From an uncultured bacterium (GTDB lineage Bacteria; Omnitrophota; Omnitrophia; Omnitrophales; Abzuiibacteriaceae): a stretch of 64,000 nt of DNA. The stretch is from contig CAYLXA010000006.1 in NCBI GenBank assembly GCA_964387845.1, positions 135,040 through 199,039 on the forward strand. Direction: 5' to 3'. Under the pieces are notes generated by a model, which did no database searches, was not told the origin of the DNA, and worked only from the letters and a program-made list of their open reading frames with translations. Each line of letters opens with the position of its first letter. Positions within the stretch are counted from its first letter, which is position 1. This document shows, piece after piece, positions 4,217 through 58,726 of the stretch. The position numbers and the translations under genes are program-made.

Positions 4217-4681
4217 ATGACACGACGCGTTGCCCTCAAGCCTGCCGCCATCCTTCTGATTCTAGGTATTTTTTTGGCTTTCCCGTGGCTGAGCGGCTAC
4301 ACGTTTCTTCAATATATGAAAATGAAGCACAGTGTTACGATTCACGGTTTTTGGTATCCTTCTTATTTCCCGATCGGAAAGTTTTATGTGCGTCAATTAA
4401 ATGCGGATTGGAAAGATGATTTTCGAATCCAGTCCGGGACGCTTGAAGTCCAATATAATCCGTTTCTGTTTTCAATTTCGCGCGGTGGTGTTTCGTTGAA
4501 AGGGCGCGATCTGGAGGTTTCGGTGAAGAAATTGAACTCAAATCTCAAAGTGAAAGGGCCGTTTGTCGTAAACCGGTTTGATGCCAAGCTGGAATTGCGG
4601 CCTCGCGCAGAGCCCTTCATCCACTCGCTTGAAATTGACTCGCCGGTGATTCAATTCAAAATCAACGGGCAATCGGCATGA
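4217..4681 (+). CDS. hypothetical membrane-anchored protein
   Basis: An N-terminal TM/signal-anchor (AAILLILGIFLAFPWL) is present. Its stop overlaps the next start (ATGA). Confidence 0.4.
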   Translation: MTRRVALKPAAILLILGIFLAFPWLSGYTFLQYMKMKHSVTIHGFWYPSYFPIGKFYVRQLNADWKDDFRIQSGTLEVQYNPFLFSISRGGVSLKGRDLEVSVKKLNSNLKVKGPFVVNRFDAKLELRPRAEPFIHSLEIDSPVIQFKINGQSA

Positions 4682-5400
4682 ACCTCTATTCCGGAAAAAA
4701 TTTCTCAGCACCTTCTGTGCTGATTTCGCTGTGTGTGCACGCCGGTATTTTACTCATCGGCCATGCGGCAGTAGCGTATTCGTGGGTGATTCCGATTCAG
4801 ACGGAACAGAGCATCCTGCTTGAGTTAAATTCGTCGGCATCCCATCCAAAATCGTCCGCACAGAAAGCGGCGCTGCCCAAGACCGAAGAGAAGCCGCAGA
4901 ATCCTGCGCCGGAAAAGGAAAAATTAGCGGATGCGGCGCCAAAAAATTCAGGTTGGGACAACCGCGAATTTCAAGACCGGCAAGCCAGGATGGATCAAAA
5001 AATTGAACTAATCCGTGAACAAATTAGAAAAATCAAAGAAGGCCAATCCACAGGCGCCGAATTGAAAGGCTTCGAGCTGATTTCGGCAGGCCTTGATAGC
5101 GAATCGTGGCGGTCTTATTTGGCAAAGCTTCGGCGGCAAGTTCTTGAAAAATGGTATCCGATGATTCTTTCACGAGAAAGCCAATTAAAAACCAGCGAAG
5201 CGCGGCTTGATTTCTATATCGGGACGGATGGGCGAGTGGTGGCTTATGAAATTGCAGATTTAAAAGGCGTGCCTGTTTTTGGTGAAATTTGTTTGGAAGC
5301 TTTCCGGCGTGCTATTGGGACCGAAGCAAGCCTTGCGAGACAAGCGGTGAAGCCCGTCGGCAATTTCCTAAAGGTGTCGCTCTTTTTTTATTACCAATAG
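4678..5400 (+). CDS. TonB-family C-terminal domain protein
   Basis: There is an N-terminal TM, a Pro/Lys-rich linker (KPQNPAPEKEK) and a C-terminal block 'YP...DFYIGTDGRVVAYEI...' resembling the TonB_C fold. Confidence 0.45.
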   Translation: MNLYSGKNFSAPSVLISLCVHAGILLIGHAAVAYSWVIPIQTEQSILLELNSSASHPKSSAQKAALPKTEEKPQNPAPEKEKLADAAPKNSGWDNREFQDRQARMDQKIELIREQIRKIKEGQSTGAELKGFELISAGLDSESWRSYLAKLRRQVLEKWYPMILSRESQLKTSEARLDFYIGTDGRVVAYEIADLKGVPVFGEICLEAFRRAIGTEASLARQAVKPVGNFLKVSLFFYYQ

Positions 5401-13058: not shown

Positions 13059-14471
13059 ATGACACAGTTACAGCAGGCGGTTAAGGACATTCAAAGTCTT
13101 TTACAGCCCGGAAAACGGGCTCATTTAATCGGTGTGGGCGGCGTCGGCATGAGTGCGCTTGCCAAGGTTTTGAAGCATATGGGCCTTGCCGTCAGCGGAT
13201 CCGATATGAAAGCAGGCCGCGTCGCTTCCGAGCTCACTTCCGGCGGCATTCAGATTTTCAACGGGCATGATAGCCACAACGTTTCCAATTGCGATTTCAT
13301 TATTTATTCTTCCGCCATCCGTGTTGACAATCCCGAAAGGCGCCAGGCGCTGATTAGCGGTATTCCGTCTTTTCATCGCGCAGAAGTTTTGTCGAATATC
13401 ATGAACCGGGGTATTTCAATCGGCGTTACAGGCACGCACGGTAAAACAACCACATCGGCCCTCATTAGCTTTTTGCTTCAAGCTGCAGGTTTACGCCCGA
13501 CTTGTTTGGTGGGTGGTAATATTTTAAATTTCGGATCCAACACGCTGCTTGGCGATCCCAATCTTTTTGTCGCAGAAGTGGACGAGAGCGATAAAAGCCA
13601 TTTGAATTTTAAGCCTGATTTTGCGGTTTTGACCAATCTCGAAGAAGACCACATGGATGTCTATCAGGATTTTGCGAATCTGCAGCTCGCATTTTCCCAG
13701 TTTGTCGAAAACATTCAGCACTCGGGACATGTGATCTTTTCGGCGCACGATTCAAACCTAAAGGAGATTACGCGCATTACAACCCGCAAAACGGATTACG
13801 GATTGTCGCGCAATTACGGTTTTGGAGCAGAAGAAGTTGTGTTGGAGGGCTTTCAGTCGCGCTTCCGGCTTTACGAAAAAGGTGAATTTATTTCAACGGT
13901 TTCGCTAACCGTGCCGGGCATGCACAACGTGCTGAATGCGCTTGGCGCAATCGCGACGCTCAGAACCTTTGGAATTCCGTTCAGAAGTTTCGAAGCAGCG
14001 CTCCCCAAATTTCGCGGTGCCGGACGTCGGCTCGAGGTGAAGCTTGAGCATCGCGGCTGGACCGTTATTGATGATTACGCGCATCATCCCACGGAAGTGA
14101 TTGCGTCATTGAAAGCAATTCGGACATTGGGCAAACCGACGACGGTGGTGTTTCAGCCGCACCGGTATTCGCGCATGCAGTATCTCGGAGAGTCGTTTTC
14201 TAAAGCATTTCATCATGCAGATTGCCTCATTTTAACGGATATTTACAGTGCAAATGAAGAGAATGCAAAAGGAATTGATGTGAGCGACTTGTATGAAATG
14301 GTAAAAAGTGCCGGGCATCCGAATGTTCGCATGGTAGCCCGCGATCAATTAATCGATCATTTGCTCCAGGACTCCGCAGGCGAAGGCGTGGTTGCCTTTC
14401 TCGGAGCCGGAGATATCGGAGAGGTGGCCTGTGAATTTGCCGAACGGCTTCGTGGTTCCGATCCAGAATAA
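13059..14471 (+). CDS. murC: UDP-N-acetylmuramate--L-alanine ligase
   Basis: 'GVTGTHGKTTTSAL' P-loop and an N-terminal Rossmann 'GVGGVGMSALA'. Confidence 0.9.
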   Translation: MTQLQQAVKDIQSLLQPGKRAHLIGVGGVGMSALAKVLKHMGLAVSGSDMKAGRVASELTSGGIQIFNGHDSHNVSNCDFIIYSSAIRVDNPERRQALISGIPSFHRAEVLSNIMNRGISIGVTGTHGKTTTSALISFLLQAAGLRPTCLVGGNILNFGSNTLLGDPNLFVAEVDESDKSHLNFKPDFAVLTNLEEDHMDVYQDFANLQLAFSQFVENIQHSGHVIFSAHDSNLKEITRITTRKTDYGLSRNYGFGAEEVVLEGFQSRFRLYEKGEFISTVSLTVPGMHNVLNALGAIATLRTFGIPFRSFEAALPKFRGAGRRLEVKLEHRGWTVIDDYAHHPTEVIASLKAIRTLGKPTTVVFQPHRYSRMQYLGESFSKAFHHADCLILTDIYSANEENAKGIDVSDLYEMVKSAGHPNVRMVARDQLIDHLLQDSAGEGVVAFLGAGDIGEVACEFAERLRGSDPE

Positions 14472-51928: not shown

Positions 51929-52001
51929 GGGCCAGTAGCTCAGCTGGGAGAGCGCTACATTCGCATTGTAGAGGTCACGAGTTCAATCCTCGTCTGGTCC
52001 A
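51929..52001 (+). tRNA. tRNA-Ala (anticodon CGC)
   Basis: Manual cloverleaf: acceptor GGGCCAG/CTGGTCC with a G3:U70 pair, D-arm GCTC-AGCTGGGA-GAGC, anticodon stem CTACA/TGTAG, loop TTCGCAT, T-arm ACGAG-TTCAATC-CTCGT, discriminator A. CCA is not encoded. Confidence 0.85.
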
Positions 52002-52008
52002 AATTTCT

Positions 52009-52292
52009 GAAGCCGGTAGCTCAGCCCTCACGCTACCATGAATATTCACGTATTATTTTAATGAAGCGTGAGGGTAGTCCTGATTTCTAATGAATAAATG
52101 ATTGTCATTTATTGATGAAAATCAGGGCAGCTGGGAGAGCGCTACATTCGTATTGTAGAGGTCAGGACTCATTTTCATTGAGGGATCCAGACGGTCAATA
52201 GGAAATGAGTTCAGCTCCTGAGCCTGATCAAGAATTCCTTAGTCGATTTTTACAGTAGCTCAGGGGCGGGGGTTCGGTCCCCCTTCGGTCCA
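52009..52292 (+). other. tRNA-like mosaic / pseudo-tRNA region with nested perfect hairpin insertions
   Basis: It contains a 5' tRNA fragment (GCCGGTAGCTCAG), a D-loop-to-variable-loop copy almost identical to the tRNA-Ala but with anticodon loop TTCGTAT, a third GTAGCTCAG copy, and a T-arm/3'-end-like GGGGGTTCGGTCCCCCTTCGGTCCA. Two inserts with perfect 8-10-bp inverted repeats interrupt it. Confidence 0.4.
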
Positions 52293-52422
52293 AAGTTAGT
52301 TTTACACCTAAAATTAGCCTCGAATTAATCTCACCTAACGTCTTAAGCTATCAGATAAAAGAGCCGAAACATTATCCTACAAGCTTGGAGTGTCTTTAAG
52401 CGGTTAAACGTAGGATAAAATT

Positions 52423-53295
52423 ATGAGCTACTACCGCATTTTAGGTTTTGATAAAGAGCCTTTTTCCACAAGCCCGGACCCTAACTTTTTTTATCTTACC
52501 CGCGAGCACGAAACGGCGCTGACCAATGTTTTAATCGAGCTCAGATTGCGCCGAGGTTTGTCGGTTGTTTTGGGGGATGTTGGAACCGGCAAAACAAGTC
52601 TTTCCCGGAAATTAGTTCAGTGCTTGCGTGAGCGGAGCGACTTTATATTTCATATTGTTTTAGATCCCTGCTTCGAGAATGAGCATCTTTTCTTAACCTC
52701 CTTAATTCGCAATTTGGGAATCGTTGTCGATCAGCCGCATGAACAAGACCGAACTCTGCTTCGGCACACGGTTTTAGACTTAAAAGAGGCTTTAGAAAAG
52801 TACCTTTATCAGAAGTGCGTTATCGAAAATAAAACAGTGGTTTTGATTGTCGACGAGGCGCAGAAGCTGAGCGAATCCTCGATGGAAATGCTGCGTGTTA
52901 TACTTAATTACGAAACCAACGAAAACAAATTGTTGCAGCTCGTCCTTTTGGGCCAAATGGAGCTTCATGCAAAAATCGTGAATATCCCGAATTTTTGCGA
53001 CCGGATTAGTTTTAAATATTCGCTCAACCCGCTGGATTTCAAGGAAACGAAAGACATGATCCGCTACCGGATCAAGCAAGCAGGCTACAACGCGCCGTCC
53101 CATCTTTTTTTAGATGATGCAATTCAGCTGATTCACAAAGTGTCGCGCGGATATCCGAGAAAAATCACGATGCTGTGCCATCGCTCGCTCAAGAAGCTTG
53201 TGATGCAAAGTAAATGGTCGGTCGACGAAAATTTGGTGCGCGAAATCGTGAATGAAGATATTCATTCCGGCTGGCTTGCGCCGACGCTGCATTAA
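52423..53295 (+). CDS. ExeA/GspA/MshM-like AAA+ ATPase (secretin-associated)
   Basis: N-terminal 'YRILGFDKEPFSTSPDPNFFYLTREHETAL' and Walker A 'GDVGTGKTSL', Walker B 'LIVDEAQ'. It lacks a C-terminal peptidoglycan-binding extension. Confidence 0.7.
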   Translation: MSYYRILGFDKEPFSTSPDPNFFYLTREHETALTNVLIELRLRRGLSVVLGDVGTGKTSLSRKLVQCLRERSDFIFHIVLDPCFENEHLFLTSLIRNLGIVVDQPHEQDRTLLRHTVLDLKEALEKYLYQKCVIENKTVVLIVDEAQKLSESSMEMLRVILNYETNENKLLQLVLLGQMELHAKIVNIPNFCDRISFKYSLNPLDFKETKDMIRYRIKQAGYNAPSHLFLDDAIQLIHKVSRGYPRKITMLCHRSLKKLVMQSKWSVDENLVREIVNEDIHSGWLAPTLH

Positions 53296-54032: not shown

Positions 54033-55687
54033 TGAAAAGAACAATTTCACAAAAAAAGCACTTACTCATCATTGTATTAACGGTTATCGTTTCGGCAATG
54101 CCCGTGAGCTCATTCAGCGCAACGTTACCGGCTCCGGAAACAGCACAAGTCGCAGCGCAGCCGTCAGAGAAAGCCGAGCCATTACAGATTGCCTCAGCCG
54201 CATCGACAACCGGGCTTGATAAAACTATTTTTCTAGATCTTCGCGATATCAACGTTATCGATATTCTTAAGTTTTTAGCTTTGGAAGGGGATTTGAATAT
54301 TGTGACGAGCAAAAACGTCCAGGGCCGATCAACGCTGCTTTTGCGTGACGTAAAAATCCGCGATGCGCTCGACATTATTGTTTTATCAAACCAGCTTGCC
54401 TACGACATGAGGAACAGCATTATTTACGTTATGACCGAGCAGGAGTATTTGCAGCTTTACGGAAAAAATTTTAGCGATCAGAAAAAAATCAAAACTCGGG
54501 TTTTGACGTACGCCAAGCCCAGTCACGCGCTTGCGGCGCTGCAATCAATTCAAAGCGCTTTGGGAAAAGTGATCATTGACGAGGAAACCGGCTCGGTGAT
54601 CATGATCGATACTACCGAAAAATTATCCGAAATGGATGCTCTGTTGGATAAGCTGGAAACCAAAGTTGAGACCAAATCCATCACACTTCAATATGCGATG
54701 GCGAAAGATATCGAAACGCAGCTGAAGCCGAAATTAGATGTCAAATCCGTTGGTTCGGTTATTGCGGATGAACGGTCCAATCAAGTGACCATCACAGCGT
54801 ATCCGGGCCGGATGGAAGAAATTGTGGAGCTTGTGCAGTCGTTGGACGCTAAAACCAAAGCGGTTTTGGTGGATGTTCGCATTCTGCAGTTAACCATTAA
54901 TCCGAAGTACGATGCCGGAATCGAGTGGGAAAGAGTATTTACGAACAGTAAGAACGAACTTTTCAAAAGCCTCGATTTCAACCATGCATTTCCGATCGCT
55001 TCAACAGTTTCATCCAGCGCGGCTCTGGGCTCGGTCGGCCAATACACGATCGGAAACTTAACGACGGATGAATTTACGGCCGAATTAAGATTTCTAAAGC
55101 AAATCGAGCGCACCAACGTTGTTGCCAGTCCGCGGATGATGATTCTGGATCGCCAAGAAGCGAAGATTAATATCGGTGACCGGATTCCGTATGTTATTAC
55201 CACAACAACCGGAACGGGAACGAACGTGTCGGTTAGTGAGGACATTCAATTTATTGACGTTGGCCTTAATCTTGTTGTGACGCCGGTTATTAATGACGAG
55301 GGGTATGTGACGATGAAAATTCGTCCGGAAATTTCAAGCCGCACGGGAACGCTTACAACACCCACAGATAACGCAATCCCGATTGTTAATACAACGTTTA
55401 TCGAAACCAATATCGTTGTAAAGGATGGAGTCACCATTATCTTGGGCGGCCTCAGGCGGGATGAATTAACCGAATCAAACAAAGGCGTCCCGTATTTGAT
55501 GGATGTGCCCTTCATCGGCAACGCGTTTAAAAGCAGGGCTGAAACAACGCGAAAAACGGAGATTGTTATTTTCATCACGCCCAAAATTGTCAGCGGAACT
55601 GAAACAATGGCGTGGCAAAATCCGCCTTTTAAACCGGCAAAGTTAGAGATGATTCCACAGGCGCAGAAAAACAAAAAAATATCATGA
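54032..55687 (+). CDS. secretin (GspD/PilQ/MshL family outer-membrane channel)
   Basis: Signal peptide, N-domains, and a C-terminal secretin core ('VVASPRMMILDRQEAKINIGDRIPY', 'VVTPVINDEGYVTMKIRPEIS', 'IILGGL...VPYLMDVPFIGNAF...EIVIFITPKIV'). Confidence 0.8.
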   Translation: MKRTISQKKHLLIIVLTVIVSAMPVSSFSATLPAPETAQVAAQPSEKAEPLQIASAASTTGLDKTIFLDLRDINVIDILKFLALEGDLNIVTSKNVQGRSTLLLRDVKIRDALDIIVLSNQLAYDMRNSIIYVMTEQEYLQLYGKNFSDQKKIKTRVLTYAKPSHALAALQSIQSALGKVIIDEETGSVIMIDTTEKLSEMDALLDKLETKVETKSITLQYAMAKDIETQLKPKLDVKSVGSVIADERSNQVTITAYPGRMEEIVELVQSLDAKTKAVLVDVRILQLTINPKYDAGIEWERVFTNSKNELFKSLDFNHAFPIASTVSSSAALGSVGQYTIGNLTTDEFTAELRFLKQIERTNVVASPRMMILDRQEAKINIGDRIPYVITTTTGTGTNVSVSEDIQFIDVGLNLVVTPVINDEGYVTMKIRPEISSRTGTLTTPTDNAIPIVNTTFIETNIVVKDGVTIILGGLRRDELTESNKGVPYLMDVPFIGNAFKSRAETTRKTEIVIFITPKIVSGTETMAWQNPPFKPAKLEMIPQAQKNKKIS

Positions 55688-56691
55688 AAGAAAATAATAC
55701 CAAGTTTTTAATACAAGCACTCACCAGAATGGCTCTGATTTTATTAATCGCTACAGGCGCGGCCCGTCCCGGCTCGGCATTTTGGCCGTTTGATACCGGT
55801 GAAGAAAAACAAAGCGAAGAGTTTAGTGCTCCGACAGCCTCACTTCCGACACCCGAACAGAAAAGGGAAGAATCGCTCAAGATTGATACGATTCTAAGCA
55901 CGCTAAACGAGTCCCTGGAAGAAAACAAAAAACTCCGGACCGATGCGGAAAACGCGCAAGAGCAGCTGAACCGATCCTCAATCGAGAACAACGTACTTCG
56001 AAGCCAATTGCGCACATTGCAAGCAGAAGCCGATTCGTACAAAACCGAGCTCACCAAGCACGCAGAAGAAACAAAAAAAAACATTCAAAAGCTTGAGCAG
56101 GAAGTTGGTCGTCTTCAAATTGAGGCCAAAAAAGCAGAAGAGATGAAGGAATTTGCCGAAGAAAGCATGGCCTACACCGAAGCGGAAAATCAAAAGGTGA
56201 GAAAGCTGCTTGAACAATCTATTCTTGAAAGCGAACGGGACACATACGTGAAGCTGATTTCGGAGTCGGAGATAAAGGCGAATCGAGCTGCGGAAAAGCT
56301 GATGACAGCAAAGCGCCAGAATGAACGCATGAGATCCGAACTGGCTTCGGCTTATTATAATTTGGGCAATATGCTGGCCGGGTCGGCGCAATATCGGAGC
56401 GCTTTAACGCAATACAAAAAGGCGCTCAAACTTAACCCAAATGATGCGTGGACGCATTACAATTCGGCCATTATTTATGATTATTATTTAAACAATAAAG
56501 AAAAATCGCTCGCACACTACAAGAAATATTTAAGCTTAGAACCTGCTGAAAAAGAGATCAATAAAGTGCGCGAGCGCGTTTTAGAAATGGAATTACTGAA
56601 TCCTGTCACGCCCGGCCAGCCGCTCAAGTCTGATTTTGACAAATATCAAAAGGATTTGAACAAGCCCTACGTCATCAAGGCAAACGGTTAA
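55684..56691 (+). CDS. secreted coiled-coil / TPR-repeat protein (MshN-like position)
   Basis: Signal peptide, a long E/K/Q-rich coiled coil, and C-terminal TPRs ('AYYNLGNMLAGSAQYRSALTQYKKALKLNPNDAWTHYNSAIIY'). ATGA overlap with the secretin gene. Confidence 0.5.
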   Translation: MKENNTKFLIQALTRMALILLIATGAARPGSAFWPFDTGEEKQSEEFSAPTASLPTPEQKREESLKIDTILSTLNESLEENKKLRTDAENAQEQLNRSSIENNVLRSQLRTLQAEADSYKTELTKHAEETKKNIQKLEQEVGRLQIEAKKAEEMKEFAEESMAYTEAENQKVRKLLEQSILESERDTYVKLISESEIKANRAAEKLMTAKRQNERMRSELASAYYNLGNMLAGSAQYRSALTQYKKALKLNPNDAWTHYNSAIIYDYYLNNKEKSLAHYKKYLSLEPAEKEINKVRERVLEMELLNPVTPGQPLKSDFDKYQKDLNKPYVIKANG

Positions 56692-56801: not shown

Positions 56802-56938
56802 TTTTTTGTTGTCCCATAACCCTAAATTAAACTGCTGAATTAACATATGGCGATTGGGAAATTTCTGACTTGAAAAAGGCAAACCTGCCGAAAGGCGGGG
56901 ACGCAAAACCGAAGTTCTAAATCTCATCAAGGAGAGAC

Positions 56939-58726
56939 ATGAAGGCTGGGTTACCAAGCTGCTTGCGCAATGCGCACACCATGCGTATTGACGCTCAAAT
57001 AAATTGCAAATTTTTCTTCTATGCGATCAGTCTTTTCGTCTTCCTTTTTGGCGCGTCTCCTAAAACCGTTTGGGCCAACAACCTCAGCATTTCAAACGTC
57101 ACACTGACAAGCCAGGATTCCGCAAACGACACCGTCGCGATTCAGTTTGATATTTCGTGGGACAATTCATGGCGGAACCAGACCAATTGGGATGCGGTTT
57201 GGATATTTATTAAATACACAACAGAAACCTCAACGCCGCAGCGATGGTTTCATGCAATTCTACGCAAGACTTCCGCAGCAGCATCCCAGACAAATCCTTC
57301 CGGATATTCTCAAGGAAGCGGAACTGGTCTGGACATTCTTTTGCCGGATGATAATACGGGTGCGGATACCGGTGTTTATGGCGCGTTTCTTTACCGCTCA
57401 GAGATCGGAACTGGCAGCGTTTCAACCACCAGCGTGAAGCTTTTGTGGGATTATGGCGAAAACGGCTTGGCAGATACCGCGACACCGATTGTGCAAGTAT
57501 TCGGCATCGAAATGGTTTATGTTCCACAGGCGTATTTTGTAGCCGGCGATTCCACTAACTCAGCCAGTAATCCGCCGGGCGGATTTGTGGACGGCGGAAG
57601 CGGTACCTATGCTGCTTACACAGTGAGCAGCGAAACTCAGATTGGGTTAGGATCTCCGACGACTGGATGGATTCAATCGCGCTCCGGCATGTCGCCCGCG
57701 GATGATTTTTCAAGCGCTGCTCACAAAAATCTCCCGATTGCATATCCAAAAGGCTACAACGCGTTTTACATGATGAAATATGAACTGACACAAGGTCAAT
57801 ACGCCGAATTTTTAAACACGCTGGAACGTAAAGGCCAAGTCAACTTAGTCGGTGCTACCGTGTCGGCTGATACGATTGCAAATTATTATGTCATGAGCGC
57901 CGAATCTCAATTATCAAGAAGCAACCGAAATACGATTACAGCTCCTTCGTTTGGAAACGGCAGTATCAATCCTATTGCGTTTTCGGTCTCAAGGCCTTAC
58001 CGGGCTATGAACTATCTTGCTTGGATGGATTTGGCGGCCTATGCCGATTGGGCTGCTTTGCGCCCGATGTCTGAGTTGGAGTATGAGAAGGCGGCGCGCG
58101 GTTTTTATGGCTATCAAGCTCCATTACCTGCTTTAAGTTTGGGATTTGCTTGGGGAACGACCGATTTGGTAATTGCAACGACTCCGAATGCATCGGAAGA
58201 TAGTGGAACGGAAGGAATCAACGGAAATGCAGCTTACGGTAATTATACCTACGGCGCTGGCGATGGTTCAACGGGTCCGCTCCGTGTGGGCATTTTCGCA
58301 AGCGGAACCGCGACGGCTACTCGCCCGCTGAGCGGTGCCGGCTTTTACGGCGCGATGGAGCTCTCGGGGAATGTCGCAGAACAGGTTGCGTCCATAACAG
58401 ATACGCTGGCTGCCAACATCCGCGGCGGCAGGGATTTTGACGGATCACATGGCAACGGCACAGTGGTGACTGGTTCTGCGTGTTCTTGGGTCGGGCGGGC
58501 CGACGTGAAGCAATGGCCGGGGTCGTTAACGACATTTTCAGATGGTAACTGCAGCGGCGGCGGAACGGTTCGGCTCATCTATTCACGCGGCGCTATCCGG
58601 CGCGGTGGCTCGTGGAGCAGTGTATCAGCGCGGCTGCAGCTTTCAGACCGCCTAGATTCAGGAAGCGTGCCGAGTTTTACGCGTTCCAGCGCGCATGGCG
58701 GCCGGTTGGTGAGGACTGCGCCATGA
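56939..58726 (+). CDS. secreted protein with N-terminal conserved domain and C-terminal non-catalytic FGE-sulfatase-like (SUMF1/GldJ-type) domain, paralog 1
   Basis: AAGGAGAGA RBS and a signal peptide. 'ELTQGQYAEFLNT', 'RPYRAMNYLAWMDLAAYADWAALRPMSELEYEKAARG' and 'GGRLVRTAP' follow the FGE-sulfatase fold pattern, but no Cys pair is present. Confidence 0.6.
   Translation: MKAGLPSCLRNAHTMRIDAQINCKFFFYAISLFVFLFGASPKTVWANNLSISNVTLTSQDSANDTVAIQFDISWDNSWRNQTNWDAVWIFIKYTTETSTPQRWFHAILRKTSAAASQTNPSGYSQGSGTGLDILLPDDNTGADTGVYGAFLYRSEIGTGSVSTTSVKLLWDYGENGLADTATPIVQVFGIEMVYVPQAYFVAGDSTNSASNPPGGFVDGGSGTYAAYTVSSETQIGLGSPTTGWIQSRSGMSPADDFSSAAHKNLPIAYPKGYNAFYMMKYELTQGQYAEFLNTLERKGQVNLVGATVSADTIANYYVMSAESQLSRSNRNTITAPSFGNGSINPIAFSVSRPYRAMNYLAWMDLAAYADWAALRPMSELEYEKAARGFYGYQAPLPALSLGFAWGTTDLVIATTPNASEDSGTEGINGNAAYGNYTYGAGDGSTGPLRVGIFASGTATATRPLSGAGFYGAMELSGNVAEQVASITDTLAANIRGGRDFDGSHGNGTVVTGSACSWVGRADVKQWPGSLTTFSDGNCSGGGTVRLIYSRGAIRRGGSWSSVSARLQLSDRLDSGSVPSFTRSSAHGGRLVRTAP

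Follow-up and report, generated by a model that had tools for sequence, protein, structure and literature searches.

The stretch of DNA analysed here (the window) comprises 64,000 nt of contig CAYLXA010000006.1 from an uncultured bacterium of the Omnitrophota (assembly GCA_964387845.1). It contains a single sequence called as a tRNA gene by ARAGORN and Rfam, an intact tRNA-Ala(CGC) designated copy 1, which is closely followed by a 283-nt sequence (52010–52292) that is derived from tRNA-Ala(CGC) and is split at two points by inserts composed of hairpin units (Table 1). The latter is referred to below as the interrupted copy. Copy 1, which a first-pass annotation made from the sequence alone had rightly taken for an intact gene, contains the acceptor strands GGGCCAG and CTGGTCC, hence the pair G3:U70, which is the alanine identity pair, and the T arm ACGAG-TTCAATC-CTCGT, while CCA is not encoded. 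The whole region is identical in a separate Logan assembly of SRR15237813 (L001) and is thus not a quirk of one assembler; the inserts in it are structured and have counterparts elsewhere.

Table 1. Features of the intact tRNA-Ala(CGC) and of the interrupted copy downstream of it (positions are those of the window; folding energies are predictions).
Feature	Positions	Strand	Evidence or placement
Intact tRNA-Ala(CGC), copy 1	51929–52001	+	ARAGORN; Rfam RF00005, 63.9 bits
Spacer of 8 nt, AATTTCTG, separating copy 1 from the interrupted copy	52002–52009	+	Sequence
5' piece of the interrupted copy, A1 A2 G3 C4 C5 G6 G7 U8 A9 G10–C13 A14 G15	52010–52024	+	Direct repeat D2
Insert 1: H1, TAGT linker, H2 and terminal GCAG	52025–52130	+	After tRNA position 15
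H1 (type A): CCCTCACGCT, 30-nt A/T-rich loop, AGCGTGAGGG	52025–52074	+	Inverted repeat I4; fold -19.1 kcal/mol
H2 (type B): CCTGATTT...AAATCAGG, inner stem AATAAATGA/TCATTTATT	52079–52126	+	Inverted repeats I13 and I1
Middle piece: remaining D-loop, 3' strand of the D stem, anticodon arm with loop TTCGTAT and anticodon CGT, variable loop AGGTC	52131–52163	+	
Insert 2: H3 and H4	52164–52267	+	At the variable-loop/T-stem junction
H3 (type B, apparently in the opposite orientation to H2): GGACTCATTT...AAATGAGTTC	52165–52212	+	Inverted repeat I14; fold -17.2 kcal/mol
H4: CTCCTGAGC...GCTCAGGGG	52215–52267	+	Inverted repeat I8; fold -18.5 kcal/mol
T arm GGGGG-TTCGGTC-CCCCT (A58 to G), 3' acceptor TCGGTCC, discriminator A	52268–52292	+	Direct repeat D3

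The tRNA-derived pieces are those which the first-pass annotation had picked out, namely GCCGGTAGCTCAG of copy 1, which recurs at 52012–52024, a 40-nt direct repeat (D1, 52128–52167) sharing 95% identity with 51941–51980 (D-loop to variable loop) in which CGC is changed to CGT, a third GTAGCTCAG (52255–52263; three copies in the window versus 0.09 expected), and the sequence GGGGGTTCGGTCCCCCTTCGGTCCA, which resembles a T arm and 3' end. The third GTAGCTCAG is the 3' strand of unit H4, and was therefore dropped as a candidate attachment (att) core. The annotation had also failed to obtain one canonical cloverleaf, on the ground that the 3' end and the 5' acceptor strand are unpaired; this ground needs correction. 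Positions 3–7 (GCCGG) pair with TCGGT at 52285–52289 (G3:U70, C4:G69, C5:G68, G6:C67 and G7:U66), so that five of the seven acceptor pairs form and only A1·C72 and A2·C71 are mismatched, and the deletion in silico of both 52025–52130 and 52164–52267 yields a 73-nt cloverleaf with the anticodon CGT (ARAGORN, default settings). No clean second tRNA is called by ARAGORN in the native sequence, as the annotation had expected, nor when one insert is deleted, and Rfam 15 returns nothing significant on 52002–52300 even at an E-value limit of 10.

Each insert comprises two hairpin units, and the earlier description of the first as a 106-nt stretch within the D-loop, flanked by CAG on either side, is accurate. 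The nested stems described at the same time were all recovered as perfect by a repeat finder, including the 10-bp stem CCCTCACGCT/AGCGTGAGGG (100% complementary), the 8-bp stem CCTGATTT/AAATCAGG enclosing AATAAATGA/TCATTTATT, and the 8-bp stem ACTCATTT/AAATGAGT in the second insert, and predicted folding energies of H1, H3 and H4 are given in Table 1. These four hairpins lie within 243 nt, versus a background of ~1 per 2 kb (~27 per 64 kb) in a generic hairpin scan. A total of 11 such units are found across three loci, which are the window and the metagenomic loci L145 and L160 described below. They are 48–53 nt long and contain terminal inverted repeats of 8–12 bp around an A/T-rich centre of ~30 nt, where the terminal repeats follow the consensus CCCTCAC...GTGAGGG or the variant CCTGATTT...AAATCAGG. 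With their small size, terminal inverted repeats and no conserved open reading frame (ORF), the units resemble MITEs (miniature inverted-repeat transposable elements). All 11 are bounded by CAG-like (YAR) triplets, namely CAG, TAG, CAA or CGG, neighbouring units share the middle triplet, and the triplets around the first insert match the host tRNA, the Ala copy having CAG/CAG and the Val copy of L145 having CAA/CAA; GTAG precedes H2 units only. Homologues of H1 are located at 582–634, 728–779 and 783–832 of L145 and at 4540–4589 of L160, and the stems and linker of H2 are identical to those at 639–686 of L145. For the seven type-A units, pairing is kept in 97.1% of stem cells, both sides have changed in 7 of the 10 pairs, and none of 500 shuffles attains the resulting covariation score. 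A conserved mini-ORF in the H1 loop was considered and dropped, as it is not kept in L145, and hammerhead or C/D-box motifs in H2 were likewise rejected, as Rfam returned only SNORD99 at a non-significant E-value of 0.87.

A covariance model (R1) was built from three inserts, namely insert 1 of the window and both inserts of L145, which it scores at 103–117 bits (115.7 bits at 52025–52130). On insert 2 of the window (52163–52266), R1 gives 31.2 bits on the minus strand and 21.1 bits on the plus strand, with an E-value of ~1e-5 in 4 kb and 0.0018 in 722 kb; true members of the family read in the wrong orientation also score ~31 bits. End motifs are common to insert 1 and insert 2 once the latter is reverse-complemented, and the global score of the two, 17, compares with 5.9 ± 3.6 for shuffles, 7 of 500 of which reach it. 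The first-pass annotation had asked whether the first insert is a dispersed element. Homologues of its units occur in L145 and L160; within the window, blastn (word size 7) with each insert finds no second copy. An nhmmer profile of the three inserts yields no further copies and misses insert 2 of the window, and R1 yields none over 93 loci (722 kb), an extra match at 14285–14366 of L003, in the counterpart of the intergenic region that contains the cyclic di-GMP (c-di-GMP) riboswitch in the window, being taken as spurious. The generic hairpin scan shows no other CCCTCA-type unit or cluster in the window, L160, L005, L003 or L157. The T-arm/acceptor pattern GGGGGTTCGRTCCCCCTTCGGTCCA has no match in GTDB representative genomes and viral contigs, the conserved core AGCGTGAGGGTAGTCCTGATTTC has none in viral contigs, the six matches of the H1-stem pattern in viral contigs are all due to chance by alignment score, and the whole interrupted copy searched against phages and plasmids in distant mode is matched in its tRNA part alone. 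Past the window edge, only a 1.9-kb Logan contig was recovered.

Locus L145, from a JGI metagenome, contains an intact tRNA-Val(TAC) followed by TTTTTT and a Val-derived copy without the 5' acceptor strand. Its insert after position 15 shares ~80% identity with insert 1 of the window, the stems and linker being identical, and its second insert, at the variable-loop/T-stem junction, is a collinear paralogue of its first; no close homologue was found for the protein flanking this locus. Locus L160 is the orthologue of the window locus in another, related species of the Omnitrophota. It is the IMG contig Ga0268299_1000056, which was reached through members of the ATPase cluster and belongs to the same metagenome as L145, and the two are possibly from one genome; it is identical in Logan contigs of three further runs (L160–L163, four samples). 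The family is therefore represented by three loci in two or three genomes. The intact tRNA of L160 is identical to copy 1 of the window at 73 of 73 positions, while its interrupted copy lacks the 5' acceptor strand, still contains the anticodon CGC, has the T-loop mutated to TTTGATC and has its anticodon loop interrupted by a further insert, 32 nt long, that is unrelated to the units. After position 15 there is one unit (CCCTCACATT...AATGTGAGGA) versus two in the window. The region 4659–4707 is the counterpart of H3 (82% identical), and 4710–4759 is the counterpart of H4, in which the stem is kept through two changes on both sides. Proteins flanking the tRNA are 67–76% identical to those of the window (values from L157, a contig that breaks off within this tRNA), and the spacers around the intact tRNA are 25–41% alike between the window and L160. 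The latter figure is that of 52002–52014, and the spacer between copy 1 and the interrupted copy is thus evolving freely, as far as these alignments indicate.

The interrupted copy of the window is, by its sequence, a descendant of tRNA-Ala(CGC) with degenerative transitions rather than a threonine tRNA. Its anticodon arm, searched as CTACATTCG and ATTGTAGAGGTC around a C/T variant, reads CGC in all of at least 120 GTDB genome stretches from many phyla, while the CGT form has no match in the JGI metagenomes and none among those stretches. The T-loop TTCGGTC contains G at the conserved A58 position; L002, in which the ATPase is 94% identical, has the same 3' end as the interrupted copy but the canonical T-loop TTCGATC, and the Omnitrophota tRNA-Ala(CGC) genes of L053, L058 and L075 end in ...GGGGTTCGA(C/A)TCCCCTTCGGTCCA. 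The lesions are thus the loss of G1 and G2, C36 to T and A58 to G. The sequence possesses neither a contiguous cloverleaf, a seven-pair acceptor, a canonical T-loop nor the anticodon arm conserved in relatives, and is presumably inert as a tRNA.

A working tRNA gene with two introns (archaeal-style, or processed by an RNase and a ligase) and the anticodon CGU, charged with Ala or Thr, is an extremely improbable alternative, although the exact removal of both inserts in silico restores a cloverleaf and the insert positions are among those of non-canonical archaeal tRNA introns, which use the D-loop and the variable-loop/T junction, among other positions. The setting is bacterial, with a secretin, an ExeA-like ATPase, a c-di-GMP riboswitch and homologues in Omnitrophota. 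The first two acceptor positions (A1 and A2) do not pair, both other examples have lost the 5' acceptor strand, G stands in place of A58, and the number of units varies between orthologues. Each insert is predicted to form closed hairpins of its own sequence, with 2–4 unpaired nt from the tRNA parts, rather than an exon–intron helix with 3-nt bulges, and inspection of the predicted structures revealed no bulge-helix-bulge (3-4-3) at the insert junctions. The intron-containing or split tRNA-Thr(CGU) put forward in the first-pass annotation is unsupported on the same grounds, with the CGT form matched neither in those GTDB stretches nor in the JGI metagenomes, CGC in L160 and the identity pair G3:U70 retained.

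Relatives preserve what appears to be the state before insertion. In L005 and in L158/L159, the locus contains a continuous tRNA-Ala(CGC) that abuts the stop codon of a lipoprotein gene, and its D-loop and variable-loop/T-stem junction are unbroken, which corresponds to an empty site. These tRNAs contain the acceptor strand GGGCCGG and a G-rich T stem, of the type seen in the interrupted copy of the window, and the empty sites in relatives with this type of acceptor and T arm indicate that the inserts are derived. L158/L159 and L002 may represent a single genome or separate genomes. Judged by the acceptor and T-arm types of these relatives, the interrupted copy looks like the ancestral resident gene, and its intact neighbour would be the newcomer. 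The order of the flanking genes in relatives is conserved as acyl-CoA synthetase, hydrolase, a 46-aa ORF, lipoprotein, tRNA and ATPase.

The locus is probably, though by no means certainly, a tandem tRNA-Ala(CGC) pair in which the upstream gene is intact and the downstream one is a dead copy that was hit repeatedly by non-coding palindromic insertion units. A decayed tandem duplicate with MITE-like insertions was among the possibilities raised in the first-pass annotation, and agrees with the degenerative state of the Ala copy and with the insert homologues at other loci. The units would insert at the DNA level into loop-coding positions of tRNA genes, probably with duplication of a 3-nt target, and the targets would be GCTCAR, which places the unit after D-loop position 15, and GGTCAG, where the variable loop meets the T stem. 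In adjacent pairs, the second unit would have entered the triplet duplicated by the first, resulting in two inserts of ~105 nt. An insertion would kill the tRNA and survive only in a copy made redundant by a neighbouring intact isoacceptor; the interrupted copy of the window would be dispensable because such an isoacceptor lies 8 nt upstream. Each interrupted copy has decayed separately in its own lineage, and the lesions differ, those of the window contrasting with the lost 5' acceptor strand of the relatives and the extra anticodon-loop insert of L160. The transposition mechanism, the 3-nt duplication and the enzyme responsible are what we infer from these data. Two other routes were rejected. 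One composite element (insert 1, middle piece and insert 2) moving between tRNAs is incompatible with a middle piece that matches the local tRNA, whether Ala or Val, and the products predicted for the single-crossover integration of a small circle disagree with the observed order.

A number of observations weigh against repeated insertion into a dead copy. No gene for an integrase, a transposase, a Y1/HUH enzyme, RAYT or TnpA is found at 33–60 kb of the window. The copy number is low, as a scan of JGI metagenomes with the end motifs gave 23 loci, 22 of which are chance matches (alignment scores 2–27, versus 127 for L145), leaving L145 as the sole true homologue, and outside tRNA copies a unit is found neither in the window (64 kb) nor in the L160 locus (10.9 kb) nor in ~720 kb from further loci. 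At all three loci, an intact isoacceptor stands directly upstream and the inserts occupy the same two tRNA positions, a layout which a selection filter explains in three of three cases only if the targets are recognised with very high specificity. Persistence of the interrupted copy dates back to the split of species whose flanking hydrolases share 67% amino-acid identity, and the conservation of H3 between species, set against that of the spacers, is beyond the expectation for junk DNA. The sense (tRNA) strand folds better in three of the four inserts (-40.4 versus -26.8 kcal/mol for insert 2). Moreover, the boundaries of the units, from which the 3-nt duplication is read, were placed by eye, G runs make those of insert 2 ambiguous, and the membership of insert 2 in the family is modestly supported, given its R1 scores and the nhmmer miss.

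These points bear on a further, rather unlikely explanation, in which the interrupted copy is transcribed into a structured RNA with a function, that is, a tRNA scaffold widened by hairpins at two exposed positions, co-transcribed with the neighbouring tRNA and acting in protein binding, as a decoy or in regulation rather than in decoding. One of these is position 15/16 in the D-loop and the other is the variable-loop end, from which the long arm of class II tRNAs extends; both are exposed sites of the L-shape. The predicted fold of 52010–52292 is strong (-113.3 kcal/mol versus -78.0 ± 5.5 for shuffles, z = -6.5), with acceptor-like ends closing a multi-branch structure in the model, and the better folding of the sense strand and the compensatory changes in the stems point in the same direction. 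So do the arrangement kept in two species and stable in four samples, the conservation of H3 (82% versus 25–41% for spacers), the restriction of the known units to such scaffolds and the two insertion coordinates common to the Ala and Val scaffolds. The scaffold itself, however, is unconserved, as L160 and L145 have no 5' acceptor strand, the L160 D-loop contains one unit instead of two along with the unrelated 32-nt anticodon-loop insert, the T-loop and anticodon lesions differ per lineage, and insert 2 of the window appears inverted relative to insert 1. Palindromes are self-complementary by origin, and covariation among their copies needs no selection on RNA; in addition, no Rfam family is matched.

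It is also possible, at a similarly low probability, that the units and the tRNA copies constitute one system, either an insertion system which targets tRNA loops and is tied to an intact upstream isoacceptor, or a domesticated scaffold RNA. The former would recognise the positions after 15 and at 48/49 and be coupled to the presence or creation of a replacement isoacceptor, while in the latter the hairpin-expanded scaffold would be a structured RNA standing beside several tRNAs of one genome. This explanation is kept under consideration because the layout is shared by three of three loci, the units occur nowhere else among the sequences examined, and Ala and Val examples come from one metagenome.

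Scars of integrative elements targeting the tRNA, with the hairpins as remnants of island ends or arm-type sites, are a distant alternative and very improbable; the first-pass annotation had listed them as att-site scars. Elsewhere, tRNA-Ala(CGC) does appear to serve as an integration site. The Clostridia loci L008, L014, L088 and L117 carry a 3' partial duplicate of tRNA-Ala(CGC) at a distance of 1–1.6 kb, and L005, a more distant relative, contains a variable segment with a toxin-antitoxin pair after the tRNA of the same locus. The Clostridia duplicates start at GGTAGCGCG... and run from the D-stem 3' strand to the 3' end; they look like att-type repeats flanking very small integrated elements. 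The variable segment (L005 2766–6000, 3.2 kb) is missing from the window; besides small ORFs, it encodes a toxin-antitoxin pair of MNT/HepT type and a protein of 419 aa that has no Pfam match, and the site downstream of this tRNA-Ala(CGC) is a variable hot spot. The interrupted copy of the window is of another kind. There are no integrase or island genes for ~18 kb to either side, and the flanks are syntenic housekeeping genes. The duplicated material covers positions 3–76, including the 5' and middle parts and thus extending beyond a 3' segment. Within each copy the two acceptor strands match, copy 1 having A6:U67 and the interrupted copy G6:C67, which excludes a crossover within the tRNA. 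The inserts split the tRNA at two internal points and are themselves homologous between the Ala and Val loci, which would be unexpected of remnants of island ends, and no match was found in viral contigs, phages or plasmids.

To our knowledge, a palindromic-repeat family confined to two defined positions in tRNA-derived sequence is undescribed in bacteria, and a literature search retrieved no such tRNA-associated element. Small palindromic repeats of ~100–150 nt are known from bacterial genomes, including MITEs, Rickettsia palindromic elements (RPE), Correia/NEMIS, RUP, SPRITE, CIR and RU-3 (PMC3184786). The units share with MITE- and RPE-type repeats their non-coding nature, hairpin-forming terminal inverted repeats, apparent short flanking direct repeat, occurrence at several loci and genomes and ability to sit in genes, RNA genes included, and, paired to ~105 nt, they are comparable with RPE, SPRITE and RU-3. 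They differ in their length of 48–53 nt, in an apparently very low copy number, in the location of all 11 units in tRNA-derived sequence at two fixed coordinates, in having no sequence similarity to the viral, phage and plasmid records searched, and in having no known cognate transposase.

RAYTs are Y1/HUH transposases that mobilise REP/BIME elements and REPINs. As in these elements and in palindromes derived from IS200/IS605, the units are short imperfect palindromes, single or paired, and the hairpin is preceded on its 5' side by a short conserved motif, which is YAG here and GTAG in the case of H2; insertion beside a fixed short target, as in IS200/IS605-type elements, is conceivable here. 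However, the units contain ~30-nt loops and exist in very few copies, whereas REPs have short loops and hundreds of intergenic copies, and the triplet flanking the units follows the target (CAG/CAA), whereas IS200/IS605 insertion makes no target duplication. The units are thus set apart from REPs and REPINs by loop size, by GTAG at H2 only, by having no other copies, and by there being no RAYT at 33–60 kb of the window.

Hairpin and double-hairpin repeats of sponge and fungal mitochondria spread within the genome, insert in tandem and occur in rRNA and beside or overlapping tRNA genes (PMC2800124). They resemble the present units as a family of short hairpins with tandem units and stems kept by compensatory change, but are usually shorter, dispersed in intergenic regions and unrestricted to defined positions of a tRNA copy. 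Genomic islands targeting tRNA genes, as collected in the Islander database, leave the tRNA intact, with a 3' fragment of it at the distal end of an element that spans kilobases and bears an integrase (PMC4383910). An intact tRNA with an incomplete second copy nearby is common to both cases, but here the second copy starts 8 nt on, spans positions 3–76 and is internally interrupted, with no island.

If the targeting is real, it would imply an enzyme that reads the structure or sequence of tRNA genes, for example as hairpins extruded in single-stranded DNA, and would illustrate how selfish DNA can be accommodated in tRNA copies that are redundant. Expression of the expanded scaffold, if it occurs, would mean a new class of structured RNAs derived from tRNA, in an uncultured phylum of which little is known. 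Loci of this kind fragment short-read and k-mer assemblies, and go unannotated because tRNA finders miss them.

Logan contigs of several runs break inside these tRNA-Ala genes, which form the starts of L001, L002 and L161–L163 and the ends of L157, L158 and L159, one of these contigs being 215 kb long. The breaks are likely due to sequence common to the tandem copies, or to co-occurring strains. Contig L158 ends (last 8 nt) in ...CCCCCTCGGCTCC, which cannot pair with its own 5' acceptor strand GGGCCGG and is unlike the TTCGGTCC of L002; at this end the assembly graph may have branched off into a different tRNA or strain. Near the locus, L003 (Omnitrophota) contains at 1–184 the end of a called gene with a product of 4874 residues.

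Downstream of the interrupted copy, the gene at 52423–53295 encodes an ExeA-like AAA ATPase with homologues from metagenome-assembled genomes of Candidatus Omnitrophota, and the genes at 33–60 kb of the window encode beta-oxidation enzymes, LepA, a signal peptidase, a secretin/TPR cluster and FGE-sulfatase-like proteins. The leader of the ATPase gene contains a block of ~40 nt (CTTAAGCTATCAGATAAAAGAGCCGAAACATTATCCTACA; 52342–52382) that is near-identical in the window, L002 and L160, and the end of this block takes part in a perfect 9-bp hairpin (TTATCCTAC/GTAGGATAA; 52372–52380/52410–52418). As modelled, the hairpin would sequester the AGGA ribosome-binding site before the ATG, and is possibly a translational control element. 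In L160 (~4870–4990), the ATPase leader contains ~83 extra nt with inverted repeats such as ACTCAT...ATGAGT and CTCGC...GCGAG, and this stretch may be a further palindromic insertion related to type-B units. A c-di-GMP-I riboswitch (56868–56958; Rfam, 76.4 bits) is located between a TPR gene (55684–56691) and an FGE-sulfatase-like ORF (56939–58726), which suggests that genes downstream of the secretin cluster are controlled by c-di-GMP.

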